From the NCBI GenBank assembly GCA_964106645.2, contig OZ067046.1: a DNA stretch of 64,000 nucleotides; one strand, written 5' to 3'. Of the stretch, positions 56,301 through 59,300 are shown in pieces. The notes under the pieces were generated by a model, which was given only the letters and a program-made list of their open reading frames with translations, made no database searches and was not told the origin of the DNA. This DNA comes from Podarcis pityusensis (lineage: Eukaryota). Within the stretch, counting starts at the first letter, position 1. Every line of letters begins with the position of its first letter. The translations under genes were made by a program, and so were the position numbers.

Positions 56301-59300
56301 ATATTCTGGCTAAATTCAGTTACTTTGGTATCTGATCCAATGGCAACTTACCATTTTGATGGCAACTTCTAGGCCTGTTTTCAGGGATACTGCTCTGTAG
56401 ACTCCTGCAAAGGAGCCCTTCCCCAGAAGGTTCCCCACCTTGAAATCCTGAAAAAGAAAAAGCAATGTTCACTGCTCTTACTGCCTCCTCACCTTCTATC
56501 TGACAGCTCCGTATGAGCTACTGAGATAGTGTGGGATGTCAAACATCTACTTGTTTTAATATGCTACCTGTAAAAAATTCCCCCTGAAATGTTTGCAGAG
56601 ATGTGATGAAATTTCCCCTTGCCTTGTAATTTAAATAGCTGATATGAAGAGTCACCTTGATTAAAATTAATCCCTGTTCTGAAACAAAAAAGACTTTAAA
56701 GAGAAAACTGTGAGGCTAGCTTGAAGTGTGGGAGGAAAGTACTGCTTCCACTTCCCAATGCAGTGGGGAGTTGTTTTTAAAAATGCATCCTGTTCATACC
56801 TTTCACATACCAACTCTCCCCTCATCTACCCTTATCCATGTTTTGCTCCCATCACTCTGCAGTGCCATATTTCACAGACTACTAGAAAGCCTGCTTCGAA
56901 ATCCGCATCTCTCTGGACTAGGGTCATGAATGTATTATAAAAGGTAGGGCAAAAGGAAGCAAATACAGAGATGTGTCGACACCATACAAGTTCAGTCTTG
57001 CAGTTTCTGACTTTTACACGATACAAAAAACACAGGCTCTTCCACGTGTTTCAGCTTTGCCCAGCTGAAACCTGGTTCCCTTGGGCAATCCTCGTACTTC
57101 TCCCCCTCCCCTCAAAAACCGTCCTGTCCCCTTTCAGGATGCAGGTGGGGAAAACACTTCAGTGCCCTGAGGGCCAGTTAAAGGGCGCCCTGGCCGCGCT
57201 CTCGCCCCGACGGCGCATGCTCCGGCAGAGGCGCTCCTCAGCAGAGACCGGCCGGCGGCAGGAGGCGGCTTTACCTGAATGGAGCTCTCCCAAGGCGAGC
57301 ACTGGGACATGCCGGCTGCGGAGGCTGCGCCGGCGCTGGGCACGGGAGAGAGCAGGAGACTGAGCAGCCACTGCGGCATCGCGCTGCCAGGAGCTCGCAG
57401 CCACTGAGGAGCTCGCGGCGCCGGGGCTCGCGGGCGGCTCTCGCCTTGCCGCGCTTTCTCCCGCTCCCGGGGGAGACGCGGCTTCCATCCCCCGTCGCCA
57501 AGGAAACGGCCCGGGGGAGAGACGCCAGAGCGGAGGCGCCCCCCCCCCCCCGCCCGCGCGCCGCCCTACTGTTGCCGCCGCCGAGAACGGCAATGCTTAG
57601 CCCCCCGCCGCCCCCTCTTCGCGCGAGAGGGAGTAAGGTCCCCCGAGCGGTCCGGGGCTTGCAAGGACAGGGCTGCACCGTTAAACTGCTTGCAAACTCC
57701 TTGGCAAAAGAAAGGTGTCCTGCAGAGGCTTCGCCCCACTTTTAAGAAATACCAGCGAGCTGGGTTTCTCCTTTCTTCAACGCAAGGCGCTTGCGGTTAG
57801 AAACTTTGCCCCCGTGACAAAAACCGATTTTGCGTTTTAAGAGCGATGGATGTTTTCTATAGGGCTGGACTTCCGTACCTATGTAGCCTTGCGGGTAGTG
57901 GAAGTCCAAGAGATAGTGTCAAAAAACTAACGTCCTAAGGTTCAAAGGATGTAGATATCTGCATATGTTACAAAAAATGTGGCATTTTCAAAACCGCCTG
58001 GGGAGTTTAGATTTTGGCATCTACCTTCCCAACACCTTTCTAGGGGCAATGATTATATCATGAGGTACGTGAATTAAAGCAAATTGTTATATTGCCATCC
58101 TTTAGGGGACTAGCAAAATATTTGGAATTTTGAGAGTGTTTTGTGGGCACCACGCCTTCCAACTGATTTGTCTTTTCTACTCCATCAACATAAAAAGACA
58201 AGTGTGCACCCACATAGATCCTCTTTCGTTTGCATGATTTGGCAACCCCCAGACTACGGTGATGAGGATGACTGATAATATATTTTAATTAGTTTGCATA
58301 TCACCTTACGAAGTTACCTAATGATTTGGAAATGATGGGTGGTTTGGAGTTGAAGTAGGAGCGGGGAAATAGAGAGCATGTGCTGGGACTTTCTGGAGGT
58401 TGTATTACCCCTTCCCCCACTGCCAATGTTTTCATAACTGATGAATATGAATAAATACCATATTGGCCCAATATAAGACCCACCTGTAAATAAGCCGCAC
58501 CTTTAAAATTCAAGGCTCTACCACCCTGAATGGGGGGGTGGGGAGAGCTGTGCCGCTTTGCCGGTGGCGTTAGGTTGCGAATATAAGGCACACTTTAACT
58601 TTTCAGTCAGAATTTGGAAAAAAGTGTGGTTTATATTCGGGCCAAAACAGTACATAAATATTTATTCCTGAAGTAAAACAGGTCAACTTTTCTCAACACT
58701 TATTTCCTGTCATCATCATCAAAATAAACAAACTCTACAGGCAAGTTTACAATTGCTTTTCTTGTAGCCCATCTGTGAGAATCTCAAATGCTCCCTATTC
58801 TCTTCCAAAAAAATTGATCACGAAAACTCAAAGTGACAGCAAACACAAGCATATATTCTTGTATTCTAAATCTATTCCCTAACTCAGTGAAGTGTTTTTA
58901 GTACTTCTGATCCTTCAACATAGGAACATAAGAAGAGCCTGGTAGATTAGGCCAATGGCCCATCTAGTCCAACATTCTGTTCTCACAGTGGTCAACCAAA
59001 CACCTGCGGGTCGCCAATATGCAGAACCCAAGCACAAGAGGACACTCCCCTCCTGAGGTTTCCAGCAACTAGTATTCATAAGCATACAGCCTCCAACTGT
59101 AGAAGTCAACCATTAATAATCATGAATAGCATGATTATTAATGTGCCCAACTGTGCAGTACAAAAAAGGAAAATCCAATATCTGTTTTGTTTGGTTAATT
59201 CCTGCCTGAAATATTAAGCATATTTTAAATGTGTATCACAAATAAAAGTATAACCTACTGTTGAAACCATCATTTTAGTATAAATCATAATACTTGCCAG

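Follow-up and report, generated by a model that had tools for sequence, protein, structure and literature searches.

PLK4 dose sets centriole number. In their accessible text, the papers checked on DREAM (CDE/CHR) and uORF control of the gene treat one promoter and one N-terminus, with no mention of an alternative first exon (PMC3874167; PMC9296005). The PLK4 locus of the lizard Podarcis pityusensis raises the question of whether the gene has a second promoter with a first exon of its own. A first-pass annotation of the window, the whole stretch of 64,000 nucleotides analysed here, had proposed that a separate CpG island in intron 1 holds such an exon, joined in frame to kinase exon 2. The main first exon is referred to below as exon 1a and the intronic one as exon 1b. 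Exon 1b marks a real, ancient PLK4 isoform that is annotated in databases yet unstudied in the literature found.

Exon 1b and its CpG island

PLK4 is encoded on the minus strand and spans about 61085 to 41369; its large kinase exon is 99% identical to that of Podarcis raffonei PLK4. The intronic CpG island at 57190-57800 (611 bp, GC 0.694, CpG o/e 0.91) is flanked by intron with o/e of 0.37 and 0.26, and 3.0 kb at o/e 0.37 separate it from the island of exon 1a (60780-61420, o/e 0.94). Its base composition and single copy mark it as a putative second promoter, P1b. The island DNA has one match in the host genome (copy counts are lower bounds), and a protein search of the genome for further copies returned only the island itself and one match at E 5.2. 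A transposon or repeat origin was rejected on these two results. No Rfam family matched within 56300-61700.

Two in-frame starts lie in intron 1, ATG1 at 57379 (35 codons up to the donor) and ATG2 at 57310 (12 codons). Exon 1b ends at base 57275 with the donor CAG/GTAAAG (57269-57274, minus strand; GT at 57274) in phase 0, the phase of exon 2. This donor is the sole one of its class between 57100 and 57900, and the same junction occurs in database isoforms. An intron of 827 nt leads to the shared acceptor of exon 2 (56352-56447, minus strand), where the kinase domain begins with DFKVG at 56447; exon 2 was located by tblastn and by contig joints to exons 1a and 3 in 4/4 runs. The second CpG island with its ATG-begun frame and good phase-0 donor is therefore present as first described. 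In 2000 dinucleotide shuffles of the island, an in-frame ATG with a donor arose by chance in 0.95% (MAG/GTRA) to 7.1% (NNG/GTRA), so the sequence alone is suggestive only and conservation decides. Two pairs of 13-nt direct repeats lie around ATG1 (57364-57419; spacings 33 and 18 nt), possibly by chance or from an old local duplication.

The exon 1b product had also been said to echo exon 1a. This did not hold, as the likeness is limited to the last two residues, with z 0.0 beyond them. Origin of exon 1b as a duplicate of exon 1a was likewise rejected (similarity z 0.0 for lizard, 1.1 for gar, and 1.3 for caecilian). The two shared residues fall in a stretch that aligns with solved PLK4 kinase constructs, and the last residues of exon 1b, SIQ, stand for KIE of exon 1a, so that the kinase domain stays whole.

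Conservation in lizards and snakes

Squamate records were drawn from the best 120 of 887 matches to the kinase exon and from three cluster look-ups (at most 15 members listed each). Among the matches listed are 32 squamate species, of which 15 have a 1b leader of 33-35 residues, 2 an ATG2-only form, and 15 neither; the long leader spans 14 genera, from geckos to snakes. The 35 leader residues of the window, and the junction, are the same as in RefSeq Podarcis muralis isoform X1 (XP_028600281.1). Other RefSeq models led by exon 1b are XP_053259407.1 (P. raffonei X1), XP_033015564.1 (Lacerta agilis X1), XP_054845871.1 (Eublepharis X1), and XP_029446209.1 (caecilian X2). The RefSeq models are automatic, with no promoter, tissue, or conservation analysis and no function described for them, and a newer P. 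muralis record that bears no isoform suffix suggests that X1 may have been dropped. Models with exon 1b also come from submitter annotations and UniRef entries. Given these gene models from several pipelines, it is almost certain that exon 1b is spliced to exon 2.

Residue identity was compared across 13 squamate genera, each represented by a single sequence, with Anolis, Crotalus, and P. raffonei left out; it divides the leader into three parts. Codons 1-12 from ATG1 (57344-57379, minus strand), a hydrophobic segment with a helix predicted at residues 3-10, have a mean pairwise identity of 0.951. Codons 13-23 (57311-57343, minus strand) form a variable linker with frame-preserving indels, to which the leader lengths of 33-35 bear witness, at 0.487. 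Codons 24-35, from ATG2 to the donor (57275-57310, minus strand), where turtle records begin, stand at 0.672. For the same genera, identity is 0.954 in the kinase domain and 0.648 in the long PLK4 linker, and 3.3% of the 269 12-residue windows of that linker reach the identity of residues 1-12. Substitutions in codons 1-12 are of three types, Q/R, L/F, and S/T. Between ATG1 and the donor, indels preserve the frame in 15/17 squamate species with a 1b record (among the matches listed, which are biased towards annotated forms). This pattern of residue identity would point to selection at the protein level on the first 12 leader residues.

The claim of an alternative first coding exon with conserved ATG, frame, and donor thus finds support, at the protein level, in squamate and turtle records. 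Products of 12 and 35 residues had both been envisaged; both starts are present, but the strongest conservation is found in the 35-residue form and not in the 12-residue form. The island would accordingly be read as carrying an alternative first coding exon, in frame with the kinase and conserved among lizards and snakes, and translation very probably initiates at ATG1. Rhineura floridana has two PLK4 genes, 92% identical and on different contigs, one annotated with exon 1a and the other seen with the 1b leader only; the two promoters may have been split between these duplicates.

Leaders in other vertebrates

Turtles have the 12-residue form, and the long form is found in Caretta. Leader similarity falls from lizard-turtle (z 7.8) through turtle-crocodilian (z 3.9) to crocodilian-bird (z 2.1). 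In crocodilians and birds the leader has the same SS(I/V)Q-type end at the junction, but its front is Arg-rich or shortened and the second Met is missing. In most turtle and mammal models the start lies 11-12 codons before the junction. Alternative starts of 11 residues ending in (I/V)E occur in marsupials, squirrels, bats, and carnivores, with no significant match to the other leaders compared. Judging from these models, birds and mammals appear to have altered or shortened 1b forms.

Leaders at the same junction, with the helix-linker layout of the lizard, also occur in caecilians, frogs, and ray-finned fish. Two caecilians have leaders of 35 and 29 residues. A search with the caecilian N-terminus, of which 120 of 278 matches were listed, gave a 1b-like leader in 20, the canonical N-terminus in 97, and another in 3. 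The 20 comprise 10 frogs (including Xenopus tropicalis) and 10 ray-finned fish (including gar, sturgeon, salmonids, and cyprinids), and all 9/9 shark and ray records among the 120 of 278 matches listed are canonical, with no 1b-like leader. Leader similarity is high for caecilian-gar (z 7.6) and gar-frog (z 8.4). Frog leaders, 41-45 residues long, have an identity of 0.964 in residues 1-13 and 0.259 in residues 17-28; in 6/10, where the second Met is lacking, translation can only begin at the first ATG.

Across the amniote/anamniote split, whole-leader z is 0.2-2.7 (lizard-caecilian 0.2, lizard-gar 1.2, turtle-caecilian 1.6), and the top 8 of 2803 window frames, as ranked by an HMM built from 21 fish and amphibian leaders, do not include the lizard exon. 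A stretch of four residues anchored at the junction, chosen post hoc, scores 13.9 for turtle-amphibian and 6.8 for squamate-amphibian; as controls, 18 other offsets score no higher than 2.5, and exon 1a scores -6.2. Lizard exon 1b and the leader of amphibians and fish are probably orthologous, and the exon would then go back to the ancestor of bony vertebrates. A metagenome scan for other vertebrate DNA returned one locus, a chance match without PLK4 homology.

Transcript evidence

Contig sets were obtained for 4 of 24 runs, from 4 studies, taken to be RNA by guess (18/24 rows were guessed RNA). Their contigs begin at 61039-61085, and the joint from 60861 to 56446, exon 1a to exon 2, is present in 4/4 sets. 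The 57275-to-56447 joint of exon 1b occurs in 0/4, where two sets without cover over exon 1b count as no evidence. One contig of depth 2.4, at 57264-57511, runs unspliced through the 1b donor. Because contigs drop rare forms, the four sets tell only that exon 1a is the dominant first exon in the samples concerned. A single variant in codons 1-12 occurs in a contig of a related animal (depth 2.4), and it is silent. A shorter-protein search for junction-spanning partial ORFs covered 31 candidates, none of which matched at E <= 10.

Promoter elements and upstream ATGs

Exon 1a (60862-61085, minus strand), defined by contigs and sequence, contains upstream ATGs at 61054 and 60952 and the main ATG at 60891, and its donor GT lies at 60861. 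A motif scan located the main promoter at 61055-61215, with a CHR at 61055, a CDE/E2F-like element at 61069, a CRE-like element at 61094-61103, and an NRF1 site at 61206-61215. As described in the accessible part of the source, the mouse Plk4 promoter has the same element set, with activation through NRF1/CRE and repression through CDE/CHR-DREAM (PMC3874167). PLK4 dose is, in the portion available, reported to be tightly set via uORF repression (PMC9296005). Lizard exon 1a resembles the promoter of these reports in its element set and in an upstream ATG directly after the CHR (PMC3874167; PMC9296005).

In contrast to the main promoter, the 1b island has no CDE, CHR, or CRE match but has an X-box-like site; the exon 1a island has no X-box-like site, and CHR, CDE, and CRE are found there alone. 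The motif scan gave no E2F match in the 1b island, and a CHR with a CDE 4 nt upstream has 0 matches in 57200-57900, the pair being present in the exon 1a promoter. The island thus lies outside the CDE/CHR promoter, as had been proposed. The X-box-like palindromic site at 57494-57507 matched two consensus patterns of the RFX X-box. Such a site arises in 0.65-1.75% of 2000 island shuffles, a post hoc figure for one of 13 motifs scanned, and the 64-kb window holds 3 matches against 0.73 expected. Other motifs of the island are GC boxes, a MYB-like hexamer at chance level (41%), and an initiator-like site at 57364-57357 inside codons 1-12.

An out-of-frame upstream ATG in strong context lies at 57486-57488 (minus strand). 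From 57488 it is 214 nt to the donor, in phase 1; its frame runs through exon 2 without a stop and ends as exon 3 begins. In a transcript that starts upstream of it, this ATG would open a uORF of 104 codons overlapping both in-frame starts, and it would repress translation. The proposed bypass of uORF control therefore holds only if transcription starts 3' of 57488; otherwise this ATG may cancel it. In the accessible text of one study, the centre of RFX peaks is placed a short way upstream of the start site (PMC7498320), a position that would put the 1b start near or 3' of 57490 and so bears on the uORF from 57488. Folding of the candidate 1b 5' UTR was no better than that of shuffles (z -0.12).

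RFX, E2F, and ciliated cells

In mouse ependymal cells, Plk4 mRNA is lower in Rfx2-/- (logFC -0.71, P 6.6e-6) and in Rfx3-/- (-0.60, P 0.026), according to the part of the dataset available (PMC7498320 Table S1). Plk4 is not among the RFX ChIP targets listed in the accessible Table S10 of the same paper, which uses a promoter window of -1000/+500 (PMC7498320), and it was not found in the accessible supplements of two RFX2 papers, PMC4498915 (4 files) and PMC3889689 (3 files). The evidence for RFX control is mixed.

In human PLK4, E2F is reported to bind in the region separating exon 1 from exon 2, according to the accessible text of two reviews (PMC12756575; PMC7994899); the study that reviews cite for this is Lee 2014. 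The cell-cycle-independent expression first proposed for exon 1b, for example in testis or multiciliated cells, would have to be reconciled with such binding. Centriole amplification in multiciliated cells requires PLK4, as reported in the part available (PMC9507127), and in Xenopus multiciliated cells Plk4 is described, in a source likewise available in part, as dependent on Multicilin/E2f4 (PMC4083089). This dependence could be explained by the main promoter. The model we propose is a second promoter, likely RFX-driven, in ciliated and sperm-forming cells. That RFX governs exon 1b in ciliated cells or male germ cells that have left the cell cycle, beyond the reach of DREAM repression, is in our estimate about as likely as not.

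The leader helix

Translation from ATG1 is predicted to give a full-length kinase with a short hydrophobic helix, likely a targeting tag. AlphaFold places a helix at residues 3-10, with pLDDT 77 over residues 1-10 and disorder afterwards. The squamate helix is rather uniformly hydrophobic (mean hydrophobicity 1.08, moment 0.29), and the fish and amphibian helices are amphipathic (moment 0.36-0.66), with a net charge of mostly 0. The helix is absent from the Anolis carolinensis model and is not kept in crocodilian, bird, or mammal models. The best 7-residue Kyte-Doolittle mean of the window leader is 2.49, from residue 5, and the best 19-residue mean is 1.32; by these values, the segment appears too short for a transmembrane segment. 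Of signal-peptide traits, the leader has a short h-like core and no basic n-region.

Pfam has 0 families for the leader, the gar leader has only chance-level matches in the PDB, and ESM Atlas returned no match >= 0.8. A full-length AlphaFold model was poor and was discarded (mean pLDDT 40, N-terminus under 50), and a complex prediction of leader residues 1-30 with kinase residues 31-300, made without alignments, scored 0.02 and was used neither way. Because the helix is conserved, stands at the very N-terminus and is followed by a linker of variable length, it is best explained as a targeting or docking tag, a tentative assignment on the predicted structure. That the helix docks the kinase on a membrane or a partner, rather than merely tuning its stability, we hold slightly more doubtful than not.

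Weighing the explanations

Stated in general form, the explanation that a second promoter of restricted use yields full-length PLK4 bearing a functional helix has about an even chance of being correct. Exon 1b might also be real and translated yet act as a dose-control device, in which a low-level E2F-linked or maternal promoter is used and the N-terminus (an exposed Pro2 or a hydrophobic degron) and the 57488 uORF change translation or half-life. Many 1b leaders start with Met-Pro or Met-hydrophobic, starts to which N-degron rules may apply, and archosaurs and mammals lose the helix yet keep an in-frame start. The E2F binding between human exons 1 and 2 given in the accessible text of the reviews (PMC12756575; PMC7994899) and the tight setting of PLK4 dose by uORFs, from a source available in part (PMC9296005), would also suit it. 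However, the lizard island has no E2F, CDE, or CHR match but has an X-box, and 12-13 near-invariant residues in squamates and frogs would exceed the usual need of a simple degron, so we regard dose control as possible but doubtful. It is improbable that codons 1-12 are conserved as DNA, as a core promoter or initiator with transcription starting inside them and only the 12-residue ATG2 form made. The initiator-like match at 57364-57357 lies within these codons, and turtle and mammal models mostly begin 11-12 codons from the junction, but the indels from ATG1 to the donor keep the frame in 15/17 squamate species (among the matches listed, with annotation bias), ATG2 is missing in 6/10 frogs and in crocodilian and bird models, the substitutions in codons 1-12 are Q/R, L/F, and S/T, and the sole variant there in the related animal's contig (depth 2.4) is silent.

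The hydrophobic stretch, with its 7-residue mean of 2.49 from residue 5 and small residues after it, is what would be expected if the squamate leader were a signal or organelle-import peptide (ER or mitochondria) that takes the isoform out of the cytosol, as a sink or a non-centriolar kinase. Most squamates, however, lack a basic n-region, the best 19-residue mean is only 1.32, and fish and frog leaders have a net charge of about 0 and a polar face. Import peptides are rarely 95% identical, which counts further against this reading, and we consider it very improbable. That the island is an enhancer or an orphan CpG island, and the isoform an annotation artefact propagated between genomes, is scarcely credible: 4/4 contig sets join across exon 1b with no 1b joint, and about half of the squamate species among the matches listed have no 1b record, but annotation transfer cannot yield segment-specific conservation and in-frame indels in two clades, and the same junction comes from several pipelines. 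The second-promoter explanation can also be given a fuller form, in which bony vertebrates ancestrally had two PLK4 kinases. The second would be expressed from an intronic promoter that is driven by RFX and free of DREAM and uORF control. Its N-terminal helix would anchor it to membranes, or to a partner in deuterosomes or spermatids, where non-dividing cells assemble centrioles and basal bodies; this helix would have eroded in archosaurs and mammals, and the human promoter would now give a kinase-dead Met42 product. In this full form we judge it unlikely.

Other features of the window

PLK4 introns hold two further elements. A foldback element of about 700 bp with long inverted arms (47424-48120) accounts for two near-identical ORFs on opposite strands, and a 279-codon Tc1/Sleeping-Beauty-like transposase frame (PF01498, weak PF25787) lies in intron 4 at 53751-54590 on the plus strand. 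Tail-to-tail with PLK4 is an MFS transporter gene with an MFS_1 match (29000-40100, plus strand), likely MFSD8. The open frames at 29486-29972, beside a CpG island at 28.5-29.5 kb, have no Pfam match and are presumably an RTE/BovB-like LINE fragment. Within a third CpG island, at 5-6.5 kb, lies an exon (5034-5603, minus strand) without a Pfam match, which we take to resemble the N-terminus of the LARP1 family.

Comparison with known systems

The first-pass annotation knew of no description of such an exon. No description of an alternative first exon of PLK4 was found in the open-access literature searched, but the isoform is already annotated in databases, so the statement holds for papers only. 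In the accessible text of the reviews and multiciliated-cell papers, no such isoform appears beyond a note on human variant 3 (PMC7994899; PMC12756575; PMC9507127). A second first exon with a conserved helix is a candidate route by which non-dividing multiciliated and male germ cells might raise or relocate PLK4. The 1b isoform is annotated in Xenopus; reptiles, and likely Xenopus and fish, carry the exon.

Human PLK4 variant 3, which encodes isoform 3 (NP_001177730.1, 929 aa), is also a second PLK4 5' end and lacks exon 1 according to the accessible part of a review (PMC7994899). Since Met42, the first residue of isoform 3, lies beyond both the glycine loop and the VAIK lysine, this isoform would be kinase-dead, whereas the lizard exon keeps the whole kinase. 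Human variant 3 may use the same intronic element as lizard exon 1b. Models from human, kiwi, tiger, and lemur start at a Met after the VAIK lysine; such models would be kinase-dead forms of a transcript without an in-frame first exon. In the light of exon 1b, human variant 3 and the intronic E2F site reported in human cells might be reinterpreted as what is left of the exon 1b promoter.

Alternative first exons swap the N-terminus of several kinases and other enzymes. Sperm PKA C-alpha2 begins with an exon 1b in intron 1, and hexokinase 1 has distinct somatic and spermatogenic N-termini; alpha-KAP of CaMKII-alpha and PDE4A1 are further examples. PLK4 exon 1b would follow this scheme, in which a short first exon under its own promoter is joined to a shared catalytic core; these are different genes, likened by gene arrangement. 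The device, alternative first exons that swap targeting segments in kinases, is known, and the PLK4 case is new to the papers found.
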